Positions 13 to 53,890 of a stretch of 64,000 bases of DNA are shown one piece after another (position 1 is the first letter of the stretch; every line of letters starts with the position of its first letter). Source of the stretch: an uncultured Rikenellaceae bacterium (GTDB lineage Bacteria; Bacteroidota; Bacteroidia; Bacteroidales; VadinHA17); assembly GCA_964599235.1 (NCBI GenBank), contig CAZRDX010000052.1:7235-71234 (forward strand). Reading direction: 5' to 3'. The position numbers were made by a program, and so were the translations under genes. Under the pieces are notes generated by a model that was given only the letters and a program-made list of their open reading frames with translations, searched no databases and was not told where the DNA came from.

Positions 13-52
13 GCGGGAGGATCTCCCGCCTCATTTCTCAGCTCTTTTTTTT
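13..52 (+). terminator. Possible intrinsic terminator of an off-window upstream gene
   Basis: 7-bp GC-rich inverted repeat GCGGGAG / CTCCCGC (13-19 and 23-29, 3-nt loop) and a T8 run at 45-52. The T run lies 15 nt after the stem, further than usual, so the call is weak. Confidence 0.25.
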
Positions 53-58
53 GTAGCA

Positions 59-2564: not shown

Positions 2565-2577
2565 TCACGCAGCGACG

Positions 2578-6899: not shown

Positions 6900-6906
6900 A
6901 AGAACG

Positions 6907-7788
6907 ATGCCGAGGATCTTCTCCTTTTTTCGCCGTCCTTTTCGGCTGATGCTGGCATGTTGGCTGCTAGGTACCCTTTTCGCCTGTTCGCGCCGTGATG
7001 CTGAGGTGACCGATTATCCTCTGGAGCGGGTATTGCAGCTTTTCCATGATGAACGGGCGCCGCAGGTGCTGGTGACGGCACACCGGGCGCGTCACACCCG
7101 CTACCCCGAAAATTCCCTGGCAGCCATTCGCGATGCCATTGCCGGGGGTGCCGACATCGTCGAGGTGGATGTACGTACCACCCGCGACGGACGCATGATC
7201 CTGATGCACGACAGTGACATCGACCGCACCACCGACGGCCGGGGCAAGGTCAAGGATCTCACCTGGAAAGAACTGCAGCAATACCATCTGCAAGGAGGCG
7301 GCGACACCTGCCGCATCCCTCTCCTCGAAGAGGCCCTGCTGACAGCCCGCGGCCGGATCATGGTCGACCTCGACATGAAAGGCGTACATGTCCTCCCCCT
7401 GGTCCGAATGGTACAGCATACCGGCACCGCCCGCCAGGTGATCTTCTTCGATGCCGACACGGCTGTCCTCGACAGTGTGCTGCTGGTCGACAGTACGCTG
7501 ATGATCATGCCGCGTGCCCATGACACCGCCGAGCTGCGGAGGCTCCTCATCCGCTACGACGCCCCCGTCGTCCATATCGACGACAGCTTTTTCACTCCCG
7601 AGGTCGTCCGGGCCATCCGTGACGACGGCGCCCGGGTATGGATCAACGCCCTGGGCAAACCCGACCTCATGGCCGCTGCCGGCATCTGGAAAGGTTATAA
7701 GGAACTGACCGGCGGCGGCGCGGGCATCCTCCAGACCGACCGGCCCGTGAGACTAAACATATACCTGACAAAGCAAGGATTACGATAA
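6907..7788 (+). CDS. Glycerophosphodiester phosphodiesterase (GDPD) family lipoprotein
   Basis: ORF 6838-7788 trimmed to ATG 6907 (lipobox GTLFAC). GDPD motifs HRARHTRYPENSLAAIRDAIAGGADIVEVDVRTTRDGRMILMHDSDIDRTTDG. Confidence 0.85.
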   Translation: MPRIFSFFRRPFRLMLACWLLGTLFACSRRDAEVTDYPLERVLQLFHDERAPQVLVTAHRARHTRYPENSLAAIRDAIAGGADIVEVDVRTTRDGRMILMHDSDIDRTTDGRGKVKDLTWKELQQYHLQGGGDTCRIPLLEEALLTARGRIMVDLDMKGVHVLPLVRMVQHTGTARQVIFFDADTAVLDSVLLVDSTLMIMPRAHDTAELRRLLIRYDAPVVHIDDSFFTPEVVRAIRDDGARVWINALGKPDLMAAAGIWKGYKELTGGGAGILQTDRPVRLNIYLTKQGLR

Positions 7789-7800: not shown

Positions 7801-10161
7801 ATGAAAAAGAGAACCATCCAGTCCAGGCCATGCGGAGGATCTCTCGGCAGACTCTTACCGGGAGTCGTAATGTTCTTCCTGTTCTCTTCACTTCTCCCGG
7901 CTGCCGGTGACGGCGAGGGCACGATCGTCCAGCCCGTCGACCCCCAGCCGGTGATGGAGGTACGCACCTGGCAGATGCATGTCGGCGACCTCCCGCTAGA
8001 GCAGGTGTTCGGCTCATACGACCGCACACAATGGCAGCGGCGTCCCCTGGGCATACGCTGGTGGAACAAATACCAGGTACGCTGGTTCCGGCAGCGCATC
8101 ACCGTACCGCCCGAGATGGACGGCCGCGACATCATCCTGCATGCTGCCACCTCGGCACGGGGGTTGCAGGCCTATATCGACGGCCGCCCCGTCATCCGCA
8201 CCAACGGCTCCAAAGCCCGGGGGGTGGTGATGCGCCGCGCCGCCGCCGGCACCACCTTCACCCTGGCCATACGCGTACAGAACGACGACTACAGCTGCCG
8301 TCTTTACCAGGCCGACCTGGTGGGCATGCCGGCTGGCTATGCCGACTTCCTCGAGACGCTCCGGGCATGGCACCGCTTGAACCCCGGCGAGGGGCTGGCG
8401 ATCCGCCGGTGGCGGTGGAAGAAGAACGCCTCTGCCCGGGCCTCCTCACCCGGTTACGACGACAGCCGTTGGGACACCCTCGCCGCGGGTGAGTCGTGGC
8501 AGGGAGAGGAGGAACATGCCTGGTACCGCACCCGCATCACCCTCCCCGACAGCATCGACGGCTTCGCCGTCGAGGGAAAGGTGTGGCTCACAGCCAACGG
8601 CAACGACCAATGCGAGATATGGATCGACGGCCGTCACGTGGCCGGCCCCCGCGGGGAATGCCGCACCCTCCTCACTCCCGACGGCAAGCCGGGAAAAACG
8701 TTCTTTCTCGCCATACGCGTGCAGAACAGCCGCGGCAGCGGCGCCCTCCGCTATGCCCGCCTCATCACCCAGCAGGAGATCGAGATGAAAGCCTCCCTGC
8801 AGCAGCTGCTCCACCGCCTCGACCGTGTCGACAGGTACTTCCGCATGAGCGTCATCCCCCGCAGCGACCAGATCAAAGATCTCACCGCCCTGCTGCAAAA
8901 ATACGTCCGGCCCTTCTCCCCTCCGGAGGAACGACTGGAAGAACTCAGGATGCTGCTCAGCCAGAAGGAAAAGCTTTATGCCCGCACTCCCGTCTTTGTC
9001 GTCCCCCCCTATCTGCAGGATGCCGAGGACGACGGTATCACCATCATGTGGGAGACAGCCTATCCCTCCTATGGCAAGGTGATCTACGGCAGGGGACAAA
9101 GCCTGGATGATACGCTGGTGGAGCTGCCCGAACCTGCCACGCTTCATGAGGTGACCCTCCCCGGACTGAAGAAGAACACGCAATACACCTACCGGGTGGT
9201 CGCAGGCAGCCTGGCCAGCCCCCTCCATACCTTCCATACCAAAAAAGAGCGCAACGACCCCCTCAAGTTCATCGTCTACGGCGACAGCCGCACCCTCTCC
9301 AAAGTACACGAACATCTCATCCAACTGATGGTGCCGGAAAAACCGGACTTCATCGCCAACGTGGGCGACGTGGTGAGCCGCGGCTCCCGTCTCGACGAAT
9401 GGATCGACGAACACTTTTACCCTATCCGTCACATCAGCGGTGACGTACCCATCTACATCTCCATTGGCAACCACGAATACGGCGGCTTCGAGGGGGGAGT
9501 CCCCCCCTTCGAACAGCGCGTGCACAACCCTGTCAACACCACCGGCAGCACCGAGTACTACTACTCGTTCGATTACGGCAACGCCCACTTCATCTTTCTC
9601 GACCCCAACGAATATGAGTTTCCCCACGGCGACGGCATCCTGCCGGGAAGCCAGCAGTACAAATGGTTTGTCAGCGACCTGAAGAAGGCCAAGGAGAAAA
9701 GCGAGTGGATCTTCGTCTTCATGCACCAGCCCCCTTATTCGGAATGCTGGTCGGGCGGTTACTACGACGGCGAGCCTCCGCTGCGGCGTTACATCGTCCC
9801 CCTCATCGAGGAGGCGGGTGTCGACATCGTTTTCTCCGGCCATACGCACGACTATGAGCGGGGTCTCCCGCACCCGCCCTACGACCCCGCAACAGGACAG
9901 GGCAACAATGCCGTCTACATCATCACCGGCGGCGGCGGGGCCAGTCTCGACAACCACAAATACCGCGACTGGCCCCAGATCGACCTGCCCGACCACCCCG
10001 CCGACCCCGACAGCAACGAATACGACGGAGGAAAATATTACGAGTTCCATTACATCGTCGTCGAGATCAACGGAAAACATCTTTCATTCAAAGCTATCAG
10101 AATGAGAGGCGACGGCACCTACGGCGGAGTGCTCGACCAGTTCGAACTGCAACACAAATAG
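7801..10161 (+). CDS. Purple-acid-phosphatase-like metallophosphoesterase with two N-terminal sugar-binding-like domains
   Basis: 786-aa ORF with a signal peptide. Two GH2-N-type galactose-binding-like segments ([43 protein letters not shown]). Calcineurin-type motifs [24 protein letters not shown] and GHTHDYER. Confidence 0.8.
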
Positions 10162-10179: not shown

Positions 10180-12399
10180 ATGAGAATGCACAGGAAGATA
10201 ACATCGATGAGACTTGCCCAATGGTCCTTGCTGATGCTGCTGATGTTCGTGCCGGCTCTGCCGGCCGCGTCCCAGCCTTATCACGACCGGCCTTTCCTGC
10301 AGGATTTTGCCAGAAAATATCCTTTTGGCGATCGCAACTTCCCCAAATGGCAGCTTTTCCAGGTGGCTGCCGACCGCAACGGTCGCATCCAGGTGCGCTC
10401 CAGCAAATATCTGCTCAAGCCGGGCGGAAAATACCTTGTACGCGATGACCTTTATCCTTTTCTTAATGATGTGAACATCCGCGCCCTCGGGAAATACCGC
10501 GACCAGTTCGTCTATCTCTCCGAGGGCTCCCTTTTCAGCAATGCCTGGGCCGGCAAGTTCTGGGTCGATCACGACCTGGAAGATGCTTCTGCTTTCTGTC
10601 TGGGGAACGATTTTGATTTTCTGCTGGCCTCCGACGGGCTGCTGGAATATTATCGCGACGGCCAAGCTGTCTGGAAAAAGGAGTGGGGCGAGCTGCTGCC
10701 TCTGGAGATGCTGTGGGACGACCGAGAGGGCCGCTTTCTTCTGCTGACGGATGACCGTCTTTACACCTTCGATCCTGCGGCCATGAAGCTGAACGAGGTT
10801 CATCGCGGTGCTTCGCTCACCACGATGACGCTGATGAAAGGATCGCTGGTGCTGGGCAGCCGTCACGGCTATTATCTTGTCGACCGTCACACCTTTCGTC
10901 AGACCCAGTCGCTGCAGGAAAGGCTGCCGTGGCCCGAGCTGACCAGGGTGCGTTACCTCCACGGCCGTCTCTGGTTCGGCTCCACGCGCGGCGCCTTCGT
11001 CCTGCGTGAGGATGGACAGTTCGACTACTATGCCTCGAAAAGATGGCTTGTCGACGACCGGGTGGTCGACCTCGCCGAAGGCCCCGGGCGCAGCATCCTG
11101 GTGCTCACCTCACGCGGGCTGAGCATCATCGATTTCAAACCCATGACGCTCGCCGAAAAAGCAGCCTATTTCGAGAAGGTGCAACGTCTGCGCCACATCC
11201 GTTACGGTTTCCAGTCACGGGCCAACCTGCGCATCCCCGGCGATCTCACCACTGCTTACATGGTCGACTCCGACAACGACGGCCTGTGGACCTCGATGTA
11301 CCTGGCCGGCGAGCTGTACCGCTATGCGGTGACCCGCTCGCCGGAGGCGCTGCAGAATGCCTACGAGGCTTTCGAGGCCATGGAACGTCTCACCGAGATC
11401 AGCGGCATCCCCGGCTTCCCCGCCCGTACCTATGAACGCGACGGCTACCAGTCGAGCGACCGCGACCCCGAGATGCCCGAGGAGCAGAAGATCTGGCGAC
11501 TCACTCCCGACGGCCGCTGGCGGTGGAAATCAACCACCAGCAGCGACGAATCGTGCGGCCACTTCTTCGTCTATGCTCTCTTCGCCGACATCGTCCCCGA
11601 CAAGGAATGGCGCGACAGGGCCATCCACCAGATCAGGATCGAGACCGACCACATCATCAACCACGACTGGTACCTGGTGACATGGAACGGCAAACCTACC
11701 CAGTGGGGACGCTGGAACCCCGAATATGTCAACAGCTTCCCCATCAACGTGGGCGACCGGCGTCTCAACTCCACCCTTATCATCGCCTTCCTACAGACCG
11801 CCTACCACTTCACCGGCGATGAGATCTACAAGGATAAAGCCTACGAGCTGATGGAACAGCACGGCTACCTGGAGAACATCCTCCGGCCCGCCTCGGTGAT
11901 CGGTTATGTGGAAGGCCAGCCGCTCAGCGACGGCTGGAACCATTCCGACGACGAAATGTACTTCCTCACCGCCCGGGCCCTGATCAAGTACGCCTTCACC
12001 GACGAACTTCGGAAAAAGTTCTTCGAGACCGTCAAAAGCCACTGGGAGCTCGAAAGACCGGAGAAAAACCCGCTCTGGAACTTCATCTATGCACAGGTGG
12101 GCGGCAAGGAGTACGACCTGGACAACAGCATCTGGTGGCTGAAGGAGTTCCCGCTCGACCTGGTGAGCTGGAACGTCGACAACACCTGGCGCAAGGACAT
12201 CGACCTGCTGGAACCCAACTTCATGCGACGCACCACCAGGAAGGTGCTGCCACCCGACGAATGTCCCATGACCCTCCACAACAGCGCCTACGAGATCAAA
12301 GGCGGTGACGGCGGAAGACGCGAATACCCGCCCTACATCTACACCCTGCCTTACTGGCTGGGACGTTATATAGGAGCGATCACGGAAGAAGAAAAATAA
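10180..12399 (+). CDS. Secreted protein of unknown function, paralog A: N-terminal beta-propeller-like region plus C-terminal helical domain
   Basis: 739-aa ORF with signal peptide MRLAQWSLLMLLMFVPALPAASQ. Collinear similarity to the 16837-19053 product: MTLAEKAAYF, DSDNDGLWTSMYLAGELYRYAVT, DGRWRWKSTTSSDESCGH, PLDLVSWNVDN, LPYWLGRYIG. No catalytic family recognised. Confidence 0.7.
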   Translation: MRMHRKITSMRLAQWSLLMLLMFVPALPAASQPYHDRPFLQDFARKYPFGDRNFPKWQLFQVAADRNGRIQVRSSKYLLKPGGKYLVRDDLYPFLNDVNIRALGKYRDQFVYLSEGSLFSNAWAGKFWVDHDLEDASAFCLGNDFDFLLASDGLLEYYRDGQAVWKKEWGELLPLEMLWDDREGRFLLLTDDRLYTFDPAAMKLNEVHRGASLTTMTLMKGSLVLGSRHGYYLVDRHTFRQTQSLQERLPWPELTRVRYLHGRLWFGSTRGAFVLREDGQFDYYASKRWLVDDRVVDLAEGPGRSILVLTSRGLSIIDFKPMTLAEKAAYFEKVQRLRHIRYGFQSRANLRIPGDLTTAYMVDSDNDGLWTSMYLAGELYRYAVTRSPEALQNAYEAFEAMERLTEISGIPGFPARTYERDGYQSSDRDPEMPEEQKIWRLTPDGRWRWKSTTSSDESCGHFFVYALFADIVPDKEWRDRAIHQIRIETDHIINHDWYLVTWNGKPTQWGRWNPEYVNSFPINVGDRRLNSTLIIAFLQTAYHFTGDEIYKDKAYELMEQHGYLENILRPASVIGYVEGQPLSDGWNHSDDEMYFLTARALIKYAFTDELRKKFFETVKSHWELERPEKNPLWNFIYAQVGGKEYDLDNSIWWLKEFPLDLVSWNVDNTWRKDIDLLEPNFMRRTTRKVLPPDECPMTLHNSAYEIKGGDGGRREYPPYIYTLPYWLGRYIGAITEEEK

Positions 12400-12470
12400 C
12401 CGCAGCATATGCTACAGACCACCTGTCTCCCGCCATTGCCAGGCCGGAGAGATCAAAAAACAGAGAAACC

Positions 12471-13856
12471 ATGAGAAAGATCCTGTCCCTTTTCCCTCTT
12501 CTTCTTGTCTCCTGCACCACGGGTACGCAACAGAAAAACCTTCATATCATCCTCCTTCCCATGGAAGAAAAACAGATCACCTTCACCACGCACAACCATG
12601 TACTGGACAACAACGACAACTTCTCCTCCGACGATCTTTTTCTCTGTTACGACACCCGTGGGACGGTGTATAACGAGGACATAGGCAACTGCCAGAGTAT
12701 CGAGAAGGTGAACATCGCCACGGGTGAGGAGACGGTGTTGTGGGATCCTCCTTCGATCACGGGCGACCGGGCTGCGCCGGGCGTGGGGGCGGTCTCGTAC
12801 CATCCTTACGAGGACAAGGTGATCTTCATCCACGGGCCCAACATCAACGAGGTGAAGGAGCGGGGTTACTACGGCAAAACCAACCGCACGGCGCTGGAGG
12901 TGGCTGCCGACGGCAGCAGGAGGCACAACCTGGTGGAGATGCGGGACGTGACCCACAACCCCACCCCTCCCGGTGCCCACCGCGGCGGCACCCACCGCCA
13001 TGAATACTGCCGCGACGGCAGCCGCATCGGCTTCACCTACGACGATTTCCTCGTGCGCAACATCGACAGGACCATCGGATACATGGAGGCCAACCCCGCC
13101 ACGCCAGCGGGATACACAAAGTTTTTCGCCGTGATCCTCCGTCCTGCCGAAAAGGGGAAAGCCCGTCCCGGTGAGATCGAGAAAGCTTACGGCGACTCGT
13201 GGGTCGACAGTGCCGGCACCATGCGTGCTTTCATCGGCAAGGTACGCCGTGAGAAGGGAGGTTACGACGAGGACCTCTTCGTTGCCGACATCCCGAAGGA
13301 GGTGGACATCACCACCGCCTTCCCCGGCACGCGGGACACCTATCCTGCTCCCCCTGAGGGCATCGTCATCCGGCGTCTCACGCGGGGCTTGCATGTGAGC
13401 GGCATTGTCCGGGGCTCCTGCGACGGCACACGCATCGCCTTTGCCGCCGCCGACCGTGCCGGCATCCCACAGCTCTTCGTCATCCGTGCCGACGGCAGCC
13501 AGCGACAACCTCGTCAGGTGACCCGTCTCACCCATCCCGTCGAGGCCCTGCGGTGGCATCCCTCCGGCAGGTGGATCCTCTTTCTCAGCGACGGGCACCT
13601 GATGGCTGCCTGGGTGGGCCGGGAACAACACCCCTACGGCACACTGGTGCAACTCACCCGCGAGAAAAAAGAACGGCAACAGCTTGTCCTCTCCCACGAC
13701 GGTACCCTCGCCGCCTATGACCTCCCCACCCCCACCCGCAACGAAAAAAACGAGGTGGTGAAAGATGCCTCAGGCCACGACTTCCGCCAGATCTGGGTGA
13801 TGAGGATCGACTGGGAAAAGGTGAAAGCAGCCCTGCCTAATGAAAAGAAACGATGA
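12471..13856 (+). CDS. DUF3748 (YidR-like) beta-propeller lipoprotein
   Basis: 461-aa ORF with lipobox LLLVSC. Segments ITFTTHNHVLDNN, VNIATGEE, VIFIHGPN, GGTHRHEY and IGFTYDD follow the order of E. coli YidR-type DUF3748 proteins as I recall them. Confidence 0.7.
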   Translation: MRKILSLFPLLLVSCTTGTQQKNLHIILLPMEEKQITFTTHNHVLDNNDNFSSDDLFLCYDTRGTVYNEDIGNCQSIEKVNIATGEETVLWDPPSITGDRAAPGVGAVSYHPYEDKVIFIHGPNINEVKERGYYGKTNRTALEVAADGSRRHNLVEMRDVTHNPTPPGAHRGGTHRHEYCRDGSRIGFTYDDFLVRNIDRTIGYMEANPATPAGYTKFFAVILRPAEKGKARPGEIEKAYGDSWVDSAGTMRAFIGKVRREKGGYDEDLFVADIPKEVDITTAFPGTRDTYPAPPEGIVIRRLTRGLHVSGIVRGSCDGTRIAFAAADRAGIPQLFVIRADGSQRQPRQVTRLTHPVEALRWHPSGRWILFLSDGHLMAAWVGREQHPYGTLVQLTREKKERQQLVLSHDGTLAAYDLPTPTRNEKNEVVKDASGHDFRQIWVMRIDWEKVKAALPNEKKR

Positions 13857-16819
13857 ACAACCTCCAAAAGATTACGAGCATGTCCAGGATCCTTCCCCTA
13901 CCCCTGCTCCTTTCGGCTCTCTTCCTTTCATGTCATCATCAGAAGGACGAGGGTCCGCTCACCGCCTACGTCGATCCTATGATCGGCACGGGTTTTCACG
14001 GTCACACCTTCCCAGGTGCTGTCCGGCCCTACGGCATGGTGCAGGTGAGTCCCGACACCCGTCTCAACGAGTGGGACAACTGTTCGGGCTATCACTACTC
14101 CAACCCCACGATCATGGGGTTCACCCACACCCACTTCAGCGGCACGGGCGGCGGCGGCGGCTCCGACATCCTCTTCATGCCCGACACGGGACGGGAGAAG
14201 TTCGAGGCAGGACCTGAGAATGAGCCTCTCAAGGGGTATCGTTCGGTTTATTCTCACGCTCATGAAGATGCCGAGGCAGGTTACTACCGGGTACTGCTCG
14301 ATGACAACCACATCACCGTCGAGCTCACCGCCACACCCCGTTGTGCTTTCCATCGTTACACCTATCCTGCCGGTGACGACGGCTGGGTGATCCTCGACCT
14401 GGAGCACGGCAACGAGGACCAGCCCGACAGTCTCTTCCTCGACACCACGTCCCTGATGACCGCAGCCCGTGAGCTCTCCGGCTACCGTGCCGCCTCAGGC
14501 GGCCTCGACGGACCCAAGGTCTGGTATTTCGTCGCCCGTTTCAGCAAACCGGTGAAGCATCTCTCCGTCATCTCTGCGGATGGTTCCGGACATCCCCCCA
14601 AAAGGCTGAAGGCCATCCTGCATTTCGATGTCAGCGACGCCCAGCCGCTGCTGCTCAAGGTGGCGCTCTCCCCCGTCAGCATCGAAGGGGCCCGCCGTAA
14701 CCTCGAACAGGAGATCCCGGGGTGGGACTTCGGGAAGGTACGTTCCCAGGCCCGTCGGGCCTGGGAAGAGGAGCTGGGCAAGATCACCATTCATGGCGCC
14801 ACGCGCCGCCAGATGCGCACCTTCTACACCGCCATGTATCACAGCTTCATCCATCCCAGCCTCTACAGCGACGTCGACGGCCGTTATCTCAGCAGCAACG
14901 GCAGGATGTACCATGCCGCAGACTTCACCAACTACACCAACTTTTCTCTCTGGGACACCTGGCGTGCCCTCCATCCTCTGCAGACGATCATCAACCGCCG
15001 GCGTACGCTCGACTTCATCCGCACCTTCCTCGAGCGGTACGAACATTCGGGCAACATGCCCATCATGGAGTTCTCCGGCAACGAACGTTATGCGATGATC
15101 GGCTACCATTCGCTGCCTGTGGTGGCCGATGCCTGGGCCAAGGGCATCCGCGGCTATGACTGCGACGAAGCCCTTCGTGCCATGATCCACCTGGCCAACA
15201 GCCCCCGCGCAGGAAAAAAATACTATCTCTCCTACGGCTTCATCCCGTACGATCTGGCTGCCCAGTCGGTATCACGCACGCTGGAGTACGCCTACGACGA
15301 CTGGTGCATCACACGCCTGGCCGAAGACCATGACAGCGCCGCCTTCTCCCTCTTCAACCAGCGGGGCCAGTTCTACCGCAACCTCTTCAAGGAAGATGTG
15401 AAGTTCATGGTGCCCCGGAGCAGTGAATACACCTGGCTGGAGGATTTCAATCCCGGCGAGAGCTCGTCGAACTACACCGAGGCCAATGCCTGGCAGTACA
15501 CGCCCAGTGTCTTCCAGGACATCTACGGCCTGATCGGCCTGATGGGCGGCGACAGTGCCTTCGTCGACTGGCTCGACCGTCTCTTCACCACACCTGTGGA
15601 CACCCAAGTGATGAAGGTGATCGATGCTTCGGGACAGATCGGCCAGTATGCCCATGGCAACGAGCCGAGCCACCACATCGCCTACCTCTACGACTATGCC
15701 GGGGCGCCGTGGAAAACGCAAGCACGTGTGCGGCAGATCCTCACGGAGCTGTACGACGACACTCCCGCAGGCATCAGCGGCAACGACGACGCCGGCCAGA
15801 TGTCGGCATGGTACGTGCTCAGCTCCCTGGGCCTGTATGCCGTGACGCCCGGACTCGACTATTTCACTCTGGGCGTGCCTCTCTTCGACCGGGCGGAGAT
15901 CCATCTGGAGAACGGCAAGACCTTCGTGATCCGTGCCGAGCACAATGCCCCCGATCATCCTTATGTGCAGGAAGTCACCCTCAACGGCCGGCCCTGGCCG
16001 TATGTTTACCTCCCGGCGGATAAGATCCTTGAGGGGGGTGAGCTGGTCTTCACGCTGGGCCCCCGCCCCGACAAGAGCCGGGGCACAGCCCCCGCCTACC
16101 GCCCGCCGCTGCCGCATTATGAGGCGATACCTTTGCCGGTGATCACCTTCCCCAGCCGCATTTTCCTCGACCGCACGCAGGTAAGGCTCTCCTGTCCTGC
16201 TCCGGGAGCCGTGATCCGCTACACCCTCGACGGCCGCGAGCCCGACGAACGGTCGCCCCGGTACACCTCGCCACTGACCATCACCCGCAGCCTCACCCTG
16301 CGCGCCCGCTGCTACCTGCCGGGACGGGGAGGCGGCTATGCCGTGGCCCAGACCTTCCGCAAAGCCACCCTCACACCCCCCACCACCCTCCGGCAACCCC
16401 GGCCGGGCCTGCGTTATACCTACCGCGAAGGACTGATCAGCTCCACTGCCGAACTCGACAAATACCCCGTCAGGAACCGGGGGATCATCGCCACCTTCAA
16501 CGTCGACTCGATCCGTGACCAGCGTCCTTTCAGTTACCGCTTCACGGGCTACCTCCAGGCACCCCTCGACGGACTCTACCGCTTCTACCTCGAATCGAAC
16601 GACGGGGCCGTCCTCTATCTCGACGGGGAAAAGATCATCGACAACGACGGTGGTCATCCCGCCCAGGCCCTGCTGACAAGCGTGGGACTGAAAAAAGGAT
16701 ACCACACCATCCGGGTCGACTATTTCCAGCTGGGACGCGCCAAGAAACTGGTAGTGAAATGGCAACCGCCCGGCCGGAACGAAATGGAAGAGATCCCGGC
16801 CCGGGCTCTATGGCACTGA
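13853..16819 (+). CDS. GH92 alpha-mannosidase lipoprotein with C-terminal CHB_HEX_C-like plus PA14 cassette
   Basis: 988-aa ORF whose ATG overlaps the previous stop (ATGA at 13853-13856). Lipobox LFLSC. GH92 motifs VDPMIGTGFHGHTFPGAVRPYGMVQVSPDT, GNEPSHHIAYLY and SGNDDAGQMSAWYVLSSLGLYAV. C-terminal AVIRYTLDG and FTGYLQAPLDGLYRFYLESNDGAVLYLDG. Confidence 0.9.
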   Translation: MNNLQKITSMSRILPLPLLLSALFLSCHHQKDEGPLTAYVDPMIGTGFHGHTFPGAVRPYGMVQVSPDTRLNEWDNCSGYHYSNPTIMGFTHTHFSGTGGGGGSDILFMPDTGREKFEAGPENEPLKGYRSVYSHAHEDAEAGYYRVLLDDNHITVELTATPRCAFHRYTYPAGDDGWVILDLEHGNEDQPDSLFLDTTSLMTAARELSGYRAASGGLDGPKVWYFVARFSKPVKHLSVISADGSGHPPKRLKAILHFDVSDAQPLLLKVALSPVSIEGARRNLEQEIPGWDFGKVRSQARRAWEEELGKITIHGATRRQMRTFYTAMYHSFIHPSLYSDVDGRYLSSNGRMYHAADFTNYTNFSLWDTWRALHPLQTIINRRRTLDFIRTFLERYEHSGNMPIMEFSGNERYAMIGYHSLPVVADAWAKGIRGYDCDEALRAMIHLANSPRAGKKYYLSYGFIPYDLAAQSVSRTLEYAYDDWCITRLAEDHDSAAFSLFNQRGQFYRNLFKEDVKFMVPRSSEYTWLEDFNPGESSSNYTEANAWQYTPSVFQDIYGLIGLMGGDSAFVDWLDRLFTTPVDTQVMKVIDASGQIGQYAHGNEPSHHIAYLYDYAGAPWKTQARVRQILTELYDDTPAGISGNDDAGQMSAWYVLSSLGLYAVTPGLDYFTLGVPLFDRAEIHLENGKTFVIRAEHNAPDHPYVQEVTLNGRPWPYVYLPADKILEGGELVFTLGPRPDKSRGTAPAYRPPLPHYEAIPLPVITFPSRIFLDRTQVRLSCPAPGAVIRYTLDGREPDERSPRYTSPLTITRSLTLRARCYLPGRGGGYAVAQTFRKATLTPPTTLRQPRPGLRYTYREGLISSTAELDKYPVRNRGIIATFNVDSIRDQRPFSYRFTGYLQAPLDGLYRFYLESNDGAVLYLDGEKIIDNDGGHPAQALLTSVGLKKGYHTIRVDYFQLGRAKKLVVKWQPPGRNEMEEIPARALWH

Positions 16820-16836
16820 CTGCAAAAACAAAAAGA

Positions 16837-19053
16837 ATGAGAAATTTCTTCCTGCTTTTCCTGATGACCCTTTCCCTCGTCTTACGGGGAGGTATTCCCG
16901 ATGAGCCTTTCTGGCAGGAGTATCATGTCCCTTATCCTCTGGCGGGGGATGCTGCCGACGTACGTGCGGTGGCCGTGACACCGGGCGATGTGGTGTGGGC
17001 CGGCACACGGGCCGGGCTTTTTTACCTCGACACCGTCAAGCATCAGTGGGAGGCTGCCCTCCCGCCGCAGGAGCAGGGTCCCGTTTTCGATCTCTTCGTT
17101 GACAAGGAGGGCACGCTCTGGGCGGCATCCTGGAACGGTCTCTATGCTTTCCATGGCCTCCAACGTGAGAAGGTCGAGGAGGTGGAGGGTCCGGTGAGTG
17201 TGGTCGGCAGTGCCGGCAACCATCTGCTGGTGACGGGTCCTGCCGGCATGTGGCGCCGTGACGGCCTCAAATGGAAGCCAGGGGAGATGCCTTTCTCGCG
17301 TGAGGACCGTTGTCTCTTCGATGACGGAAAAGGAGGCTTTTACCTGGCCACCGGCCGGGGCTTATGGCATCAAAAGGGCGACGGCACCCTGCGTCATCTC
17401 TGGCAGCCCTCCCATCTCCTCAGCGACAACGTGTACGCCGTGGCCCGGGGAAAGAACAAGGAGATCTGGGCAGGAGGACTGGGAGGGATCACCCTTCTCA
17501 CCGCCGCCAAGGACACCCGTCTCTCGACGATCGAGGCTGCCGAGGGGCTTCCCGACATCCATGTGCGATGCATCCGTCGTTCACCGGCGGGTGTGATGTG
17601 GGTAGGCACCGACAGGGGGGTGGTGCGTTTCCTGGGCACCCGCCATTCGCTGCGTCACAGCCGCCGATGGCTCCTCGACGACCGTGTGCGCGACATCGCC
17701 TTCGACAGCCGCGGCAACGCCTGGATCGCCACGGCAGCCGGTGTCAGCGCCATCAAGAAAAAACAGATGACCCTCGCAGAAAAAGCGGAATACTATCACC
17801 GTCTTCTGATGCGGCGGCACGTACGTGACCCCTGGCTCGTGGAAAAATGCCGTCTCCTGGTTCCCGGTGACACCGCCCGCTGGGAGCCTATGGACGACGA
17901 TAACGACGGCCAGTACACCGCCATGTACCTGGCCATGGAGAGCTACCGCTATGCGGTCACGCACGACCCCCAGGCCCGCGAGAACGCCGTGCGGGCCTTC
18001 CACGCCCTGTGTTTCCTGCAGCAGGTCACCGGCACCGACGGCTTTGTGGCGCGGACCGTCATCCCCGCCACATGGAAAAGGATGGCCGACCCCAACGAGA
18101 GGATCAGCGACAGAGCCTTCGCCGACCGTCTGGTCCGCAACCCCCGCGACAAAAAGGTGGAGAAACACTGGAGACCCTCCGCCGACGGCAGATGGCTGTG
18201 GAAAGGAGACACCAGCAGCGATGAGATCACGGGACACATGTACGGCTATACGGTCTTCTGGGAGCTGATCGCCCGCCACGACACCATCCTGCACCGCGAG
18301 GTACGCGACCAGGTCACCCGCATCGTCGACTACATCATCACAGGAGGATATGTCCTGAAAGACCTCGACGGCACCCATACCAAATGGGGCGTGTGGGATC
18401 CTGCCCACCTCAACCATGACCCCGAGTGGGCACCGGAGCGGGGGATCAATTCACTGGAGATCCTCTCCTACCTTACACTGGCCTACCAGGTGAGCGGCCA
18501 CGAACGGTACCGGAAAGAATACCGCCGGCTCATCGACGAGCATCATTATGCCCAGAACGCTTTGCATGCCAAGACGGTGATGCCGGGATGGCGTACCTAC
18601 ATCGACGACGAACTGGTGGCCCTGGCCTACCCTGCCCTGATGCTGTATGAAAAAGATCCCGTTCTGATCGACCTCTACAAAAAGAGCATGGACAACTGGT
18701 ATGCTGCCTGCCGCAACGACGACAGTCCTTTTTATTATTTCACCTACAATGCTTTCCGCGGAAAAGAGTCCCGTCTGGAGCGCGGCGTGCTTTTCCTGCG
18801 GGACAATCCGCTCGACCTGGTGCGGTGGCGTGTCGACAACAGCCGGCGTGAGGATCTAACCCTCACCCACAAGCCCATCCTCGAGGACACGGAGACCAGC
18901 CGGCTGGTGCCACCCAGTGAGCGGGGGATCATGCGGTGGGACAAGAACCCCTGGGCGGCCGTCCAGGGTGACGGCGGCCACACCGAGGCCAGCCCCACCT
19001 TCTGGCTTCTGCCCTACTGGATGGGCAGATATTACGGTTACATCAATGAATGA
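16837..19053 (+). CDS. Secreted protein of unknown function, paralog B: Reg_prop-like beta-propeller plus C-terminal helical domain
   Basis: ORF 16759-19053 trimmed to ATG 16837 (MRNFFLLFLMTLSLVL). Repeated strands VWAGTRAGLFYL, LWAASWNGLYAF, FYLATGRGLWHQ, IWAGGLGGITLL, MWVGTDRGVVRF and AWIATAAGVSAI resemble the two-component-regulator propeller repeat. The C-terminal half is collinear with paralog A. Confidence 0.7.
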   Translation: MRNFFLLFLMTLSLVLRGGIPDEPFWQEYHVPYPLAGDAADVRAVAVTPGDVVWAGTRAGLFYLDTVKHQWEAALPPQEQGPVFDLFVDKEGTLWAASWNGLYAFHGLQREKVEEVEGPVSVVGSAGNHLLVTGPAGMWRRDGLKWKPGEMPFSREDRCLFDDGKGGFYLATGRGLWHQKGDGTLRHLWQPSHLLSDNVYAVARGKNKEIWAGGLGGITLLTAAKDTRLSTIEAAEGLPDIHVRCIRRSPAGVMWVGTDRGVVRFLGTRHSLRHSRRWLLDDRVRDIAFDSRGNAWIATAAGVSAIKKKQMTLAEKAEYYHRLLMRRHVRDPWLVEKCRLLVPGDTARWEPMDDDNDGQYTAMYLAMESYRYAVTHDPQARENAVRAFHALCFLQQVTGTDGFVARTVIPATWKRMADPNERISDRAFADRLVRNPRDKKVEKHWRPSADGRWLWKGDTSSDEITGHMYGYTVFWELIARHDTILHREVRDQVTRIVDYIITGGYVLKDLDGTHTKWGVWDPAHLNHDPEWAPERGINSLEILSYLTLAYQVSGHERYRKEYRRLIDEHHYAQNALHAKTVMPGWRTYIDDELVALAYPALMLYEKDPVLIDLYKKSMDNWYAACRNDDSPFYYFTYNAFRGKESRLERGVLFLRDNPLDLVRWRVDNSRREDLTLTHKPILEDTETSRLVPPSERGIMRWDKNPWAAVQGDGGHTEASPTFWLLPYWMGRYYGYINE

Positions 19054-20315: not shown

Positions 20316-20333
20316 CAAACAAGTATCTATGAT

Positions 20334-21083
20334 ATGGTGATCAGTATCAGCAACAACAAACAGGAGCTTGGGCGGCGCGCGGCCGCCCAGGGGGCATCGT
20401 TCATAAGGCAAGCCCTCGCACACCATGGTGAGGCAACCATCATCGTAGCCACAGGTGCCTCGCAGTTCGAGATGCTTGACCATCTGGTGAAAGAAGAGAT
20501 CGACTGGTCGAGAGTGACCGCCTTCCACCTGGATGAATACATCGGCCTGCCCTTCACCCATCCCGCCTCGTTCCGAAGGTATCTGAAAGAGCGTTTCGTT
20601 GACAAGGTCCCTCTCAAACAGTTCCATTATGTCAATGGCGAAGCGGACGACCCGGTCGAGGAGTGCCGGAGGCTGGGTGAACTGATCCGCGACCGGCGCG
20701 TCGATGTGGCTTTCATCGGCATCGGAGAGAACGGACACATTGCTTTCAACGATCCGCCGGCCGACTTCGAGACAAGTGAGCCTTATCTGGTGGTCGAGCT
20801 GGATGAGGCCTGCCGTCGCCAGCAGCTGGGCGAAGGATGGTTCTCCTCGCTCGAGGAGGTGCCCCACAAAGCGATCAGCATGTCGGTCAGACAGATCCTC
20901 AAGTCGGAGAAGATCATCTGCTCGGTCCCCGACCGGCGGAAAGCCGTGGCGGTGAAGAACAGCGTCGAAGGGCCTGTCACGCCCGAGGTGCCCGCCTCGA
21001 TCCTGCAGACCCATCCCGCCACATGGCTCTTCCTCGACAAAGCATCTGCCAGTCTTTTGAACGATAAACGAGAAGAACCATGA
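20334..21083 (+). CDS. nagB: Glucosamine-6-phosphate deaminase/isomerase family protein
   Basis: 249-aa [30 protein letters not shown] and [20 protein letters not shown] are typical of the NagB/6-phosphogluconolactonase superfamily. Confidence 0.85.
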
Positions 21084-22540
21084 AAACCCTTCTTGGCCTT
21101 TTAGTGACATGGTTCATTCCGCTATTCAGCGGGATGGCCCAGGACATCCCCGACCTGGACAGCCGGCGGGAGCTGTTCGTCGACACCTTTCTCATAGAAA
21201 GCATGGAAGGAACCCGTCTGGTCATGCACCATCCTGTCGACGAAGGAGAGGTGATGCCTTTTGACCGGCCGTGGGAAGGAGCTTTCAGCGCTTATGTCAC
21301 CGTGATCCGGGACGGTGATCTCTACCGCCTGTACTACCGGGGCATGCCCCAGGGACACCACGACGGCAGCCGTCAGGAGGTGACCTGCTACGCCGAGTCG
21401 AACGACGGGATCCACTGGCACAAGCCCGATCTGGGCCTTTTCGAGGTGCACGGCACCCGGCACAACAACGTCGTCCTGGCAGAGGCCGCTCCTGTGACCC
21501 ATAACTTCTCTCCCTTTCTCGACACACGCCCCGGCGTGCCCGCCGAAGAACGTTACAAAGCCCTGGGCGGCACCGCCCACAGCGGACTCATCGCCTGGTG
21601 CTCGGCCGACGGCATCCACTGGAAAAAAATGCAGCAACGGCCGGTACTCACCTGGGACGACGTCCCGTCGGTGAACGGCCCCTTCGACTCGCAGAACGTC
21701 TCCTTCTGGTCGGAGCAGGAAAAGAAATATCTCTGCTACTTCCGAGTATGGGAAGAAGTGGCAGGGAAAAAGTACCGTTCGGTGGCCCGGGCCGTCTCGG
21801 ATGATTTCCTCCACTGGCAACAACCGGTGGTGATGGATTTTGGCAACACGCCCCGGGAACAGCTTTACACCAACCAGACCGCTCCCTATTTCCGTGCCCC
21901 GCACATTTACATCTCCGTGGCAGCCCGCTTCATGCCGCACCGTCAGGTGCTCACCGAGGAACAGGCCAGGAACCTCCATGTGGATCCCCGCTATTTCCGC
22001 GACTGCTCCGACGCGGTGCTGATGTCGTCACGAGGGGGCAACCGTTATTTCCGGACTTTCATGGAAGGGTTCGTTCGTCCTGGCATCGGTCTGGACAACT
22101 GGGTCTCCCGGTCCAACTATCCTGCCCTGAACATCGTCCCCACGGGGCCTGAGGAGATGTCCCTTTACCTCAACCAGGACTACGCCCAACCCACCGCCCA
22201 CCTCCACCGCTATTCTCTGCGTACCGACGGCTTCGTCTCGGTGAACGCCCCTTACAGTGGAGGCACGCTGACCACCCGTCCTTTCCGTTTTCACGGTGAC
22301 ACTTTATTCCTCAATTTCTCCACCTCGGCCGCCGGCTACATCCTGGTGGAGATCCTCGACGAGCAGGGTACTCCCATCCCTGGCTATACGAAAGAGGAGG
22401 CCCGCGAGCTCATCGGCAATGAGATCGACAAGGCTGTCCCCTGGCCGGGGGACCAAACCCTCTCCCCCCTACGGGGACGAACGATACGCCTGCGTTTTTT
22501 CATGAAAGACGCCGATCTATACAGTTTCCGTTTCAAATGA
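21080..22540 (+). CDS. Secreted uncharacterised protein, putative beta-propeller plus beta-sandwich glycoside hydrolase
   Basis: 486-aa ORF with start overlapping the nagB stop (ATGA 21080-21083). Signal peptide [21 protein letters not shown]. Recurrent W/F-rich strand patterns ([29 protein letters not shown]). The C-terminal sandwich-like tail ends [17 protein letters not shown]. Family not recognised. Confidence 0.55.
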
Positions 22541-35605: not shown

Positions 35606-35640
35606 CTTTTGTCACGAAATGACAAAAGAGTTATTTTTAT
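35606..35640 (+). terminator. Hairpin plus U-rich tail after the GH78 gene (possible intrinsic terminator or attenuator)
   Basis: Perfect 9-bp inverted repeat CTTTTGTCA / TGACAAAAG (35606-35614 and 35620-35628, 5-nt loop CGAAA), followed 2 nt later by TTATTTTTAT. The stem has only 3 G:C pairs, so its strength is modest. Confidence 0.4.
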
Positions 35641-35647
35641 TGACCAG

Positions 35648-36415: not shown

Positions 36416-36434
36416 CCCTCTTAAATCTCAAGCC

Positions 36435-37910: not shown

Positions 37911-37927
37911 ATAAAAACCCACCCACC

Positions 37928-40714: not shown

Positions 40715-40734
40715 GGCTCTCAGATTTTCAGTGA

Positions 40735-44121: not shown

Positions 44122-44389
44122 AACAAAAGCAGTTAGTTTAGGTTTCAATGTCAATACGGGTAAAATACGTTCAGGGTCGTTTCAAAGAACTTCTTCTTTG
44201 GTTAAAAATAAGAATTTTTGGAAAGAACATCTTCCCATATTCACATTCTTTTGACTTTTTCACTGAAAAACAAGAAATTCTCCAATCAAGAAGGTGAAAA
44301 TACCATAAAGATCAGTCAAATTACCATAGATAAAAAGCGGTTATTTTACGTCTGAATAATAGTGTCATAACTTCTAAAAAGAAAATACG

Positions 44390-52417: not shown

Positions 52418-52454
52418 GTGCCGGTGCTGCGGCGCCGGCCAGCATATTTCCGCG

Positions 52455-53477: not shown

Positions 53478-53607
53478 GTTTTCCTGCGGCTGTCCGCAGA
53501 TCGCTCATCCTTTTCCCATCTGTCTCCGCACCCGCAAAAAATCCCAACAACTCACAACCCTCTGTATATCTGAACCGTACAAATTCTCCCCCCACTCCTG
53601 CAGCTCG

Positions 53608-53623: not shown

Positions 53624-53654
53624 CTAAGGCAAGGAGGGAGCAATAAGAAATGTT

Positions 53655-53873: not shown

Positions 53874-53890
53874 TCCCAAATACCAGCATC

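Follow-up and report, generated by a model that had tools for sequence, protein, structure and literature searches.

The HTCS sensors of Bacteroides, such as BT4663, BT4673, and BT3049 (PDB 4a2l/4a2m, 3ott/3va6, and 3v9f), are encoded in glycan-utilisation loci and contain two propellers, Y_Y_Y, a transmembrane (TM) segment, a histidine kinase, a receiver, and an AraC HTH. Another described propeller is Vgb, the virginiamycin/streptogramin B lyase (PDB 2qc5 and 2z2o), a single-domain cytoplasmic lyase with seven blades. The (alpha/alpha)6 or six-hairpin enzymes (AGE/cellobiose 2-epimerases, GH127/GH146, GH9, GH76, GH88/GH105, and PL27) have conserved acidic and basic residues at helix N-termini and are also found in glycan loci. 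In six-hairpin glycosidases, the active site is on the face of the helix N-terminal ends; the AGE-family enzymes known so far consist of one domain and are located in the cytoplasm. BT1020, from the RG-II PUL of B. thetaiotaomicron, is said to have been described by Ndeh et al. in 2017 as a fusion of two modules, a sialidase-like propeller of GH143 and an (alpha/alpha)6 barrel of GH142. Reportedly, its propeller acts on an ulosonic acid and its six-hairpin glycosidase on the neighbouring sugar.

We analysed a window of 64,000 nucleotides with two genes, A and B, that encode one propeller followed by a six-hairpin barrel (Table 1). The propeller is clearly homologous to those of the HTCS sensors (profile E = 2e-54 for 4a2l to 2e-33; Foldseek E ~ 1e-13, rmsd 3.4–3.8 Å over ~300 columns), and A and B also lie in a glycan-utilisation locus, but they have none of the other HTCS modules. 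Structurally, Vgb falls into the same class (Foldseek E ~ 6e-13, TMt 0.73), with a resemblance limited to the propeller scaffold (11–12% identity). The barrel has the overall fold of the six-hairpin enzymes but no family-level sequence similarity to them, and none of these enzymes in the PDB carries such a propeller fusion. The likeness to BT1020 is only an analogy, based on BNR_2 sialidase-like proteins being the family's commonest neighbours and occurring fused to the family module: A and B themselves carry a propeller of the Reg_prop rather than the BNR type, and no BT1020 structure was among the 50 best barrel fold matches from Foldseek.

Table 1. Features of the window, with positions counted from its first nucleotide.
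Feature	Coordinates	Strand	Basis or remark
BNR_2 sialidase-like propeller	1422..2564	+	Pfam BNR_2 E = 1e-52; ORF from 1149, ortholog alignment from ~1422
GDPD, upstream of A beyond the metallophosphoesterase gene	6838..7788		Pfam
Purple-acid-type metallophosphoesterase, 18 nt upstream of A	7801..10161	+	Pfam
Paralog A (A-type subfamily), 739 aa	10180..12399	+	ORF; signal peptide, diverged 7-blade propeller, (alpha/alpha)6 barrel
A signal peptide region MRMHRKITSMRLAQWSLLMLLMFVPALPAASQPY, no Cys	10180..10281	+	Translation, inspection
A linker helix MTLAEKAAYFEKVQRLRHIR and barrel domain	11143..12396	+	Alignment to B and family profile A1
A motif DSDNDG (DxDxDG-type)	11266..11283	+	Translation; conservation 96–100% in 56 non-redundant members
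A motif TSSDESCGH	11536..11562	+	Translation, conservation
DUF3748 propeller protein, between A and B	12471..13856	+	Pfam
GH92 + PA14, alpha-mannosidase family, between A and B	13853..16819	+	Pfam
Paralog B (B-type subfamily), 738 aa from ATG 16837	16837..19053	+	ORF, Reg_prop match
B signal peptide region MRNFFLLFLMTLSLVLRGGIPDEP, no Cys	16837..16908	+	Translation, inspection
B seven-bladed Reg_prop beta-propeller, aa 25–311	16909..17769	+	AF2 model, 28 strands
Propeller loop RHSRRWLLDDRVR, blade 7, adjoins domain junction	17653..17691	+	A2 invariant columns; R277 and W278 invariant
B linker helix MTLAEKAEYYHRLLMRRHVR and (alpha/alpha)6 barrel, aa 311–738	17767..19050	+	AF2 model
B motif DDDNDG, N-terminus of barrel helix 357–375	17893..17910	+	Conservation, AF2 model, translation
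B motif TSSDEITGH, N-terminus of barrel helix 461–477	18211..18237	+	Conservation, AF2 model, translation
B motif NSRRED (N668, R671, D673 conserved)	18838..18855	+	Conservation, translation
Secreted 486-aa protein, conserved downstream partner of B-type genes	21080..22540	+	
SusD-like + SusC-like pair	39056..44154	-	Pfam; marks the locus as a PUL

Two exported paralogs with an HTCS-like propeller

An earlier note, made from the window's sequence, had described A and B as collinear paralogs, with DUF3748 and GH92 genes between them. Pfam identifies both intervening genes, and by BLASTP the two proteins are 32% identical over 673 columns (E = 4e-82), in a collinear alignment from A115/B91 to both C-termini that contains all five of the motif pairs it had quoted. 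The ORF of B spans 16759–19053, and the ATG at 16837, 17 nt past the GH92 stop, starts the signal peptide. Because both N-termini are hydrophobic and free of Cys, we consider them to be SPI-like signal peptides, in line with the note. (The N-terminal helix of B, residues 2–15, has a low pLDDT of 64 in the AF2 model.) Lipoprotein signals were rejected for both proteins for lack of a Cys.

Close, intact orthologs exist elsewhere for A (91% identity over the barrel domain and 83% over the full length) and for B (83% and 74%), so both are real genes. Orthologs of A, at up to 91% over the barrel, are found in Bacteroidota and Ignavibacteriota, and none of them carries a Pfam annotation; orthologs of B occur in about a dozen phyla. 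One close relative has lost B, which is thus dispensable; this loss counts against an enzymatic role. The A-type and B-type genes belong to a single large bacterial family, still uncharacterised, in which they form two subfamilies of ancient divergence.

The note had also counted six or more W-[AVI]-G-T-x-x-G-[LV] strands, clearest in B, and compared them to the sensor propeller of hybrid two-component regulators. In B we located seven of these blade motifs (at residues 54, 95, 131, 169, 211, 255, and 296), B matches Pfam Reg_prop with E = 3.3e-16, and the top Foldseek matches of its propeller are BT4673, BT4663, BT3049, and Vgb. The full-length model of B is confident (pLDDT 95.3, pTM 0.93), and residues 274–283 form a 10-residue loop in it. 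The blades of A have diverged below Pfam detection, yet they can be aligned with those of B. As the note stated, neither protein has a Pfam match to a TM, HisKA/HATPase, or receiver domain, nor to an HTH, and no anti-sigma domain was found by Pfam. The shared structural class with Vgb accounts for the JGI name “streptogramin lyase.” That the propeller's nearest relatives are sensors, and that public annotation reads “regulator,” counts against an enzyme.

Given this homology, A and B could be non-catalytic periplasmic glycan binders or sensors that feed transport or modulate signalling, for example via an adjoining ECF sigma/anti-sigma pair. An ECF sigma gene is at most two genes away from a family member at 14 of the 82 loci that we compared, no catalytic mechanism could be assigned, and public annotation as “regulator / ligand-binding sensor domain” agrees. 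But A and B lack every signalling module sought above, up to three family copies per locus would be odd for a sensor, and the module occurs fused to enzyme-type modules (GH20, BNR_2, and LamG/Big_2). Also, about 20 invariant charged or polar residues at ~30% overall identity look more like an active site, and to our knowledge, almost all six-hairpin barrels encoded in PULs are enzymes. We consider a non-catalytic role unlikely.

The C-terminal barrel and its conserved residues

AlphaFold2 confidently models the C-terminal domain of ~425 aa as an (alpha/alpha)6 barrel (pLDDT 93–95; for the barrel of B, pLDDT 93.3 and pTM 0.93), which agrees with its earlier description as helical with acidic clusters. 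The domain had no match above cut-off in Pfam (2025 copy) or NCBIfam (June 2026) and no relative among PDB sequences (2026) in sequence and profile searches, so its proposed place outside characterised families stands. Its weak Pfam signals are scattered, sub-threshold, and all in different families of the six-hairpin clan; the best, GH127, scores 14.7 bits against a cut-off of 24.9 and covers the first hairpin only. The note had suggested a structural comparison with (alpha/alpha)6 enzymes, and Foldseek against the PDB (April 2026) indicated the same overall fold. The significant matches are all (alpha/alpha)6 proteins, mostly carbohydrate-active enzymes (cellobiose and GlcNAc 2-epimerases, GH146, GH127, GH9, GH76, GH88, and PL27), and all are remote (TM <= 0.48, probability 1.0).

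The best of these matches are epimerases rather than hydrolases, which, weak as they are, counts against a hydrolase. Conceivably, the barrel works as a sugar epimerase or isomerase of AGE-superfamily-like type, acting on the reducing-end sugar of an imported oligosaccharide or on a freed N-acyl-hexosamine in a sialic-acid-type pathway. The ten best matches are 2-epimerases of cellobiose or glucose (the matches also include a GlcNAc 2-epimerase family protein), H328 and H467 are conserved across the family, and nearby DHDPS-family aldolase, SSF symporter, BNR_2, YdjC, and NagB-like genes resemble sialic acid catabolism. (In the closest relative, a sialic-acid-type cassette of DHDPS aldolase, SSF symporter, and two BNR_2 genes lies directly upstream.) However, TM for the epimerases is only 0.39–0.47 with rmsd 8–10 Å, no member matches Pfam GlcNAc_2-epim even at E <= 10, and export and propeller fusion set A and B apart from known AGE-family enzymes. 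The conservation pattern is dominated by carboxylate clusters rather than by a His pair. An epimerase therefore seems improbable.

About 20 polar residues of the barrel are at least 90% conserved among 56 members that share less than 60% identity, and equally so among 63 members that are more divergent still. In the AF2 model, these near-invariant residues lie at the N-termini of the barrel helices; they include the motifs DxDNDG, SSDE..H, and NxxRxD (D355-N-D357-G, R406, K456, S460-S-D462-E463...H467, D509, T515, Y571, N668..R671.D673, and Y727). A keeps every family-invariant residue except D509, which is T501 in A. The DxDxDG-type motif may be a Ca2+ loop, or it may supply a catalytic Asp pair or carboxylate. 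The family has no conserved Cys, which rules out the Cys-Zn mechanism of GH127/146.

Family members and their neighbourhoods

The family comprises 3217 clusters at 50% identity, from at least 530 species genomes and about a dozen phyla, and A-type and B-type genes are co-located in many Bacteroidota loci. Its module is fused to a complete GH20 hexosaminidase (P0245), to BNR_2 (P0267, on two independent contigs), and to Big_2/LamG modules (P0135). Judged against Pfam, NCBIfam, the PDB, and the full-text literature, this very large propeller + (alpha/alpha)6 family has never been characterised. CAZy gains families yearly, so the family could already be classified, for example in a recent CAZy family absent from these resources, and our finding would then be an annotation gap. 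There is little chance of this: Pfam, NCBIfam, PDB sequences, and Foldseek-PDB hold no family-level match, a full-text literature search returned no paper on the propeller + six-hairpin barrel architecture, and source names among the 240 listed matches were only “hypothetical,” “regulator,” “sensor domain,” and “streptogramin lyase.”

Conservation and synteny with glycan loci hold in related and distant genomes. The note had linked the family to GH92 and phosphoesterases; both are present at the locus, and purple-acid phosphatase (PAP, cluster c5) recurs in 12 of the 82 loci, directly adjacent to the family gene in 7. The GH92 link is not conserved: co-occurrence across genomes was 3/82 loci, so that GH92 is a lineage-specific accessory and its linkage to the family is incidental. 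The conserved partners are instead BNR_2 proteins, the commonest (17/82 loci, directly adjacent in 12), PAP, YdjC (8–9 loci), and SusC/D-ECF sigma, with SusC/D within 10 kb of family genes in 12 loci. TAT-signal GFO/IDH/MocA proteins occur in 15 of the 82. The purple-acid-type metallophosphoesterase is syntenic at two loci (L006 and L086), and DUF3748 is kept beside A-type genes in L007, L086, and Dyadobacter loci. The window's BNR_2 protein is no more than a distant relative of GH33. In compact Cytophagales PULs, three family copies occur together with BNR_2, YdjC, and PAP; of the genes within 10 kb there, none that is recurrent or related to a gene of the window falls in a classified GH family. 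Outside Bacteroidota, neighbourhoods are heterogeneous (in Armatimonadota locus L002, the family gene has no adjacent glycan genes), which counts against an enzymatic reading.

Sulfatases adjoin the family gene in 8 loci, and genes for a KDG-type aldolase and a PfkB kinase recur. These would suit a barrel that acts on unsaturated, uronic, or ulosonic substrates. In place of a classical Koshland glycosidase, it would be a polysaccharide lyase or, following a lyase, an unsaturated uronyl hydrolase of the GH88/GH105 kind. GH88, unsaturated glucuronyl hydrolase, and PL27 structures are among the fold matches, single members weakly match Glyco_hydro_88, Hepar_II_III_N, and C5-epim_C, and the conserved basic residues R406, K456, H467, and R671 suit an acidic substrate. 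We doubt this reading, as the matches are at noise level and inconsistent between members, no recognised lyase recurs in family loci, and the FG-GAP proteins show no resemblance to lyases of solved structure.

A predicted glycan-processing family

The note had proposed a carbohydrate-active or glycan-sensing family; this is supported, and of these two candidates, we favour the carbohydrate-active one. Most likely, A and B represent a new family of glycan-processing enzymes. At a probability of roughly 55%, we predict new six-hairpin glycan-active enzymes, probably hydrolases of an anionic glycan. Both proteins would be exported by SPI, in Bacteroidota most likely to the periplasm, the compartment in which oligosaccharides are trimmed after import. 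The barrel would be the catalytic domain, with a putative active site formed by the conserved polar residues at the helix N-termini, and the propeller, whose one invariant loop (R277-W278) adjoins the domain junction, probably serves to bind or position the glycan. As activity, hydrolysis of a glycosidic bond is the most likely, the substrate being an anionic glycan, putatively one that carries an ulosonic or nonulosonic acid, phosphate, or both. Its action may precede or follow that of the enzymes that recur beside it (the BNR_2 sialidase-like enzyme, a purple-acid phosphatase or GDPD, and a YdjC-type deacetylase), and the A-type and B-type proteins would differ in linkage or substrate specificity.

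Two exported propeller-barrel proteins

Both of the open reading frames described in the earlier note are present. Paralog A encodes 739 amino acids, and the frame of paralog B spans 16759-19053; its start at ATG 16837, which lies 17 nt past the stop of the GH92 gene, begins a typical signal peptide and gives a protein of 738 amino acids. The two proteins are collinear to their C-termini, with 32% identity over 673 columns (BLASTP of A versus B, E = 4e-82), and all five of the motif pairs quoted in the note are found in this alignment. A and B are embedded in a tight array of + strand genes, with gaps of -95 to +109 nt (mostly -4 to +71). Signal peptides had been claimed for both, and both N-termini are indeed hydrophobic; because they also lack Cys, A and B look like soluble proteins exported by SPI and not like lipoproteins.

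The propeller repeat that had been read in B (of the type W-[AVI]-G-T-x-x-G-[LV]) is there as seven blade motifs, at residues 54, 95, 131, 169, 211, 255, and 296 (a spacing of about 41 residues), and Pfam's Reg_prop matches B with E = 3.3e-16. The blades of A have diverged and fall under Pfam detection. A full-length AF2 model of B, built from 56 sequences (pLDDT 95.3, pTM 0.93), begins with an N-terminal signal helix of low confidence. Its 28 strands form a 7-bladed propeller (residues ~25-311), and a linker helix (MTLAEKA..RH.R) then leads into a helical barrel that runs to residue 738. In a model of the C-terminal 420 residues of B, built from a 32-sequence alignment (pLDDT 93.3, pTM 0.93), this barrel has 11-12 long helices and the six-hairpin (alpha/alpha)6 fold. 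We also considered whether some members consist of the barrel only, but the short matches begin in the middle of the propeller or at the linker helix, and we take them to be truncated gene calls.

When the barrel was compared to the PDB with Foldseek, all 14 of the matches at E ≤ 1e-3 were (alpha/alpha)6 proteins (cellobiose, glucose, and GlcNAc 2-epimerases, GH146, and GH9). At weaker E values, the matches included GH127, GH76, GH88, PL27, an oxidosqualene cyclase, and a C4 thioester domain. All of these matches are remote (TM ≤ 0.48, rmsd 8-13 Å, 8-14% identity). Full-length B matched propellers only, over ~300 columns, with the periplasmic sensors BT4673, BT4663, and BT3049 of hybrid two-component systems (HTCS) and Vgb lyase ranked first. 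Since these matches cover the propeller alone, the two-domain architecture is absent from solved structures, and we came across no account of it in full-text literature searches.

The propeller is common to this family and to HTCS sensors. Against PDB sequences, the family profile matched HTCS sensors with E = 2e-54 (4a2l), 3e-52, and 2e-33, always at profile positions ~40-306; the barrel part of the profile matched no PDB sequence. Pfam detected the Reg_prop propeller in 60 of 63 divergent members. However, the signalling modules of HTCS are missing. As the earlier note had it, Pfam finds no transmembrane segment, kinase, or receiver in A or B (or any HTH), and among A, B, and 63 relatives there was no second tandem propeller, Y_Y_Y, TM, HisKA/HATPase_c, receiver, or AraC-type HTH. 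The model of B has a single propeller and then the barrel, versus two tandem propellers in HTCS. Because all of the signalling modules are absent, A and B are not HTCS.

Conserved residues and the classification of the barrel

Among 56 members that share less than 60% identity, the residues conserved in at least 90% (B numbering) are K316, H328, R330, D355-N356-D357-G358 (96-100%), T361, Y364, R406, W445, W455, K456, T459-S460-S461-D462-E463, H467, D509, G512, T515, W517, Y571, W664, N668, R671, D673, and Y727. The conserved set was also found in the more divergent 63-member alignment, and A retains all of it except D509 (T501 in A). D353, too, is at least 90% conserved. D353-x-D355-x-D357-G358 (DDDNDG in B and DSDNDG in A) fits DxDxDG, an established calcium-loop motif, which makes this a putative Ca2+-binding site. 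In the propeller, only G261, R277, and W278 are invariant; these positions take in a 10-residue loop of blade 7 that adjoins the domain junction.

In the AF2 model of B, helices 357-375, 461-477, 529-553, 588-604, and 721-732 carry the conserved motifs at their N-terminal ends. The helix-N-terminal face is the active-site face in six-hairpin enzymes, and the model thus suggests that the motifs are on the active-site face of the barrel. A dense constellation of invariant polar residues at the canonical face of a six-hairpin fold is one reason to favour a catalytic role. That A and B are a non-catalytic binder or sensor would suit a propeller of the HTCS type, but given this constellation we consider it rather unlikely.

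The earlier note could not place the C-terminal domain in a family, and our searches agree: Pfam and NCBIfam gave no match above their cut-offs, and phmmer and hmmsearch against the PDB returned only noise. Whether we used single sequences or profiles (A1 and A2), searches of Pfam, NCBIfam, and PDB sequences matched the propeller alone and nothing in the barrel. We also ran permissive Pfam scans member by member, on 32 close relatives and on 63 divergent ones. These gave scattered sub-threshold matches, all of them within the six-hairpin clan but to different families. PF07944 (DUF1680, the catalytic domain of GH127/GH146) matched 10 of 32 and 4 of 63 members in the first hairpin only; B scored 14.7 bits versus a cut-off of 24.9, over domain residues 30-108 only. 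The other sub-threshold matches were to the C5-epimerase C-terminus, GH76, GH88, and heparinase N. For GH76, GH88, GH9, and heparinase-type families, no Pfam match was above threshold, and the matches were in single members only (E = 0.004-0.04). Such scattered matches are insufficient to place the barrel in a described family. The pattern supports kinship of fold or clan and, as far as sequence goes, speaks against the barrel belonging to a family described so far.

Several specific readings can be weighed against these data. GH127/GH146 enzymes are beta-L-arabinofuranosidases with a Cys nucleophile and a Cys/Glu zinc site, and no Cys is among the columns conserved in at least 90% of the 56 non-redundant members, which excludes their mechanism. 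If the barrel were an AGE-like epimerase, the conserved H328 and H467 might correspond to the AGE catalytic His pair. The fold matches to the AGE superfamily have TM 0.39-0.47 (rmsd 8-10 Å, 10-14% identity), and Pfam's GlcNAc_2-epim matched none of the 32 and 63 members even at E ≤ 10; we think this reading very unlikely. Chemistry of the lyase or unsaturated-uronyl hydrolase type, to which the GH88, PL27, and heparinase matches would point, is similarly improbable, as those matches are remote or sub-threshold. We rejected readings of the barrel as a terpene cyclase (DxDD), LanC, or a thioester domain: A and B are exported, are found in polysaccharide utilisation loci (PULs), and lack conserved Cys, and such structures were only low-ranked fold matches. 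Finally, given the searches described here, there is only a small chance that CAZy already includes the family. Overall, the barrel has a six-hairpin fold and belongs to no described family in Pfam, NCBIfam, or the PDB. What is new is the sequence family and its domain architecture; the enzyme fold and the genomic setting were already known.

Spread of the family and its neighbours in other genomes

In an exhaustive profile search of sequences clustered at 50% identity, 3217 cluster representatives matched at E ≤ 1e-3, of which 775 matched at E ≤ 1e-30. When each GTDB species was scanned through a single genome, at least 530 loci encoded family members. By record titles, the family occurs in Bacteroidota (Bacteroidales, Cytophagales, Chitinophagales, and Flavobacteriales), Ignavibacteriota, Calditrichota, KSB1, Planctomycetota, Verrucomicrobiota, Armatimonadota, Hydrogenedentota, Sumerlaeota, Acidobacteriota, and Nitrospirota. 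The sources name members only as "hypothetical protein," "regulator," "ligand-binding sensor domain-containing protein," or "streptogramin lyase." Among the matches listed, the closest orthologs of B are from uncultured Rikenellaceae MAGs (83% and 78% identity over the barrel, 74-77% at full length), and the closest ortholog of A is 91% identical over the barrel domain and 83% at full length. An exact copy of the window's protein A is not on record in public assemblies; these relatives, together with matches labelled Bacteroidota, make Bacteroidales the probable source of the window.

A-type and B-type proteins are ancient subfamilies. About 20 loci from four Bacteroidota orders have one clearly A-like gene (37-63% identity to A and ~25-32% to B) and one B-like gene (42-58% to B), and 24 of 82 loci have two or three family copies. 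A-type proteins, which were found in Bacteroidota and Ignavibacteriota, are without any Pfam annotation. A and B need not occur as a pair. In L086/L087, the closest relative, B is not intact: the gene after GH92 (L086 16841-18520; L087 16834-18513) encodes a 559-residue chimera of B residues 1-107 (45% identity) and the ortholog of unk486 (81%), a 486-residue protein without a family. Most of B and the Nramp-like and NagB-like genes were thus deleted while A was kept, so B is dispensable in this lineage.

We surveyed gene context by comparing the window's proteins (tblastn) to 82 loci from other genomes, with flanks of 10 kb on either side, and by clustering neighbouring ORFs without prior labels. 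In this sample, which is biased towards B-type relatives, the recurrent neighbours were BNR_2 (17 of 82 loci, directly adjacent in 12), GFO/IDH/MocA with a TAT signal (15), ECF sigma (14), SusC/SusD (12, within 10 kb and all in Bacteroidota), the purple-acid-type metallophosphoesterase or PAP (12, directly adjacent in 7), c7, a weakly ceramidase-like protein (11), an SSF symporter (9), YdjC (8-9), sulfatase (8), PhoPQ-related (7), PfkB+HAD (6), DHDPS aldolase (6), GDPD (5-7), and DUF3748 (4-5), on which a full-text literature search found nothing relevant. The co-occurrence with GH92 that the earlier note had proposed is not a conserved feature (3 of 82 loci). We considered whether the BNR_2 partner is a bona fide GH33 sialidase, but the similarity is distant and partial (E ~ 1e-8), so we call it "sialidase-like."

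Larkinella, Spirosoma, and Dyadobacter have a compact module in common, in which SusD-SusC-(anti-sigma)-ECF sigma and PAP are divergent from B-YdjC-BNR_2-A-A'. Of the genes within 10 kb of this module that recur or have relatives in the window, none belongs to a classified GH family. In the compact PULs of Cytophagales (L047, L068, L045, and L072), two further proteins that recur among the 82 loci are encoded downstream of SusD: a 428-residue protein whose only match is a weak N-terminal one to neutral ceramidase (11 loci), and a PhoPQ-activated pathogenicity-related (PqaA-like) protein (7 loci). In Dyadobacter, B-type genes come after a gene for a PfkB kinase + HAD phosphatase fusion (6 loci).

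In L006, the core of the window's locus in Bacteroidota is BNR_2-PAP-A-B-unk486-FG-GAP-SusD-SusC. In L086, the genes directly upstream of A are an AraC regulator and DHDPS-SSF-BNR_2-unk428-BNR_2-GDPD-PAP, which resemble a cassette for sialic-acid-type harvest and catabolism. In Ignavibacteriota (L001), two family copies lie among GH78+PA14, GH172, 3-keto-disaccharide hydrolases, and GFO oxidoreductases; in an Armatimonadota locus (L002), no neighbouring gene is obviously related to glycans. There are also fusion proteins: in P0245 the propeller-barrel module comes after a complete GH20 hexosaminidase, P0267 joins BNR_2 to that module and is present on two independent contigs, and P0135 (3111 residues) combines family domains with Big_2 and LamG modules.

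The locus in the window and a proposed role

Along the window, the genes are unk428-like, BNR_2, GH92+PA14, unk439, GDPD, PAP, A, DUF3748, GH92+PA14, B, Nramp-like, NagB-like, unk486, GH31+PA14, two FG-GAP genes, GH2, GH78+PA14, 3-keto-disaccharide hydrolase, GFO/IDH/MocA, and DUF6807, followed by SusD/SusC and then by an esterase, GH31, and YdjC. With SusD/SusC, two GH92, two GH31, GH2, and GH78, this is a PUL.

Features of the window around paralogs A and B
Feature	Position	Strand	Remark
unk428 homolog	23-1312	+	5' edge of window; 65% identity to the 428-aa protein of L086
PA14-bearing glycosidase genes (two GH92, GH31, GH78)	2470-5520, 13853-16819, 22537-25398, 32150-35578	+	
unk439	5580-6899	+	439 aa; no Pfam or NCBIfam family
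PAP	7801-10161	+	
Paralog A	10180-12399	+	
Paralog B	16837-19053	+	
Nramp-family transporter and glucosamine-6-phosphate isomerase/6-phosphogluconolactonase-like gene	19050-21083	+	between B and unk486
unk486	21080-22540	+	486 aa, secreted; no Pfam family, no PDB sequence relative
Two tandem FG-GAP/VCBS-repeat proteins	25173-29308	+	~640 and 666 aa
3-keto-disaccharide hydrolase (DUF1080), GFO/IDH/MocA oxidoreductase, and DUF6807	35609-38992	+	
SusD/SusC	39056-44154	opposite	
Sigma-54-dependent activator and NiFe hydrogenase small subunit	52338-55006	+	beyond glycan locus; unrelated to family

The unannotated 428-residue protein of L086 to which the edge gene is homologous lies between two BNR_2 genes, and because DHDPS aldolase, SSF symporter, and AraC regulator genes are upstream of it there, the window probably cuts a sialic-acid-type cassette. 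The only signal for unk439 is a weak sequence match in the PDB to the GH158 glycoside hydrolase 9oro (E = 1e-4, residues 137-226). unk486 weakly matches GH130 beta-1,2-mannobiose phosphorylase in NCBIfam (E = 3e-5). In four other loci (L003, L004, L006, and L007; 56-76% identity), its counterpart immediately follows the B-type gene, which makes unk486 a further candidate for a new enzyme family of this type of locus. Homologs of the Nramp-like and NagB-like genes were near a family gene in none of the 82 related loci.

Three exo-glycosidases, the two GH92 proteins and the GH78 protein, have the C-terminal pair CHB_HEX_C_1/Fn3_assoc + PA14, one GH31 protein has an internal PA14 domain, and the GH78 of L001 has the same architecture as the window's. 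The first FG-GAP gene probably starts at ATG 25395 and not at 25173; FG-GAP orthologs are present in L006, L007, L082, and L086, and we rejected the idea that these are PL11-like lyases, as they have no relative among solved structures. The kinds of genes in the DUF1080-GFO/IDH/MocA-DUF6807 block also flank family members in Ignavibacteriota (L001 1772-4486 and 13396-14762), which suggests an oxidative (3-keto) route of glycoside cleavage alongside the family.

Several family copies in PULs that otherwise lack depolymerases, and the fusions to exo-glycosidase modules, again favour catalysis, and on balance we lean towards a catalytic, glycan-active role for the barrel. Its many conserved basic residues would fit an anionic substrate, as would the sialidase-like, phosphatase/phosphodiesterase, deacetylase, sulfatase, and keto-acid-aldolase partners. 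The decoration on the substrate is most likely a ulosonic or nonulosonic acid and/or phosphate. In being paired with, and fused to, a sialidase-like propeller, the family may be analogous to BT1020, the GH143-GH142 protein of the RG-II PUL.

A more far-reaching reading, with a probability of roughly one in three, is that A and B are founders of a new CAZy-type glycoside hydrolase family, in which a six-hairpin catalytic barrel has recruited an HTCS-type ligand-binding propeller. Its members would then act as the main depolymerase in a widespread and unrecognised type of PUL (BNR_2 + PAP + YdjC + several family paralogs). Across about a dozen bacterial phyla, such PULs would degrade microbial glycans (such as EPS, capsule, or LPS-core-like material) decorated with ulosonic or nonulosonic acids and phosphate.

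The family, which comprises 3217 clusters (50% identity) and is encoded by at least 530 species genomes, is among the larger remaining blocks of PUL-encoded "hypothetical" or "regulator" proteins. It would not overturn current understanding, but it is a solid and testable target for CAZyme discovery, and cultured hosts (Larkinella, Dyadobacter, Spirosoma, Arenibacter, Kriegella, and Draconibacterium) allow direct tests. The family also suggests that soils, sediments, digesters, and guts contain a glycan target which has yet to be described and for which sialidase-like, phosphatase, and deacetylase helpers are needed. If the family is enzymatic, then it would add a new catalytic family to the toolbox for glycan degradation, a widespread misannotation as "regulator" would be corrected, and a propeller common to HTCS sensors and enzymes would bear on how glycan sensors evolved.
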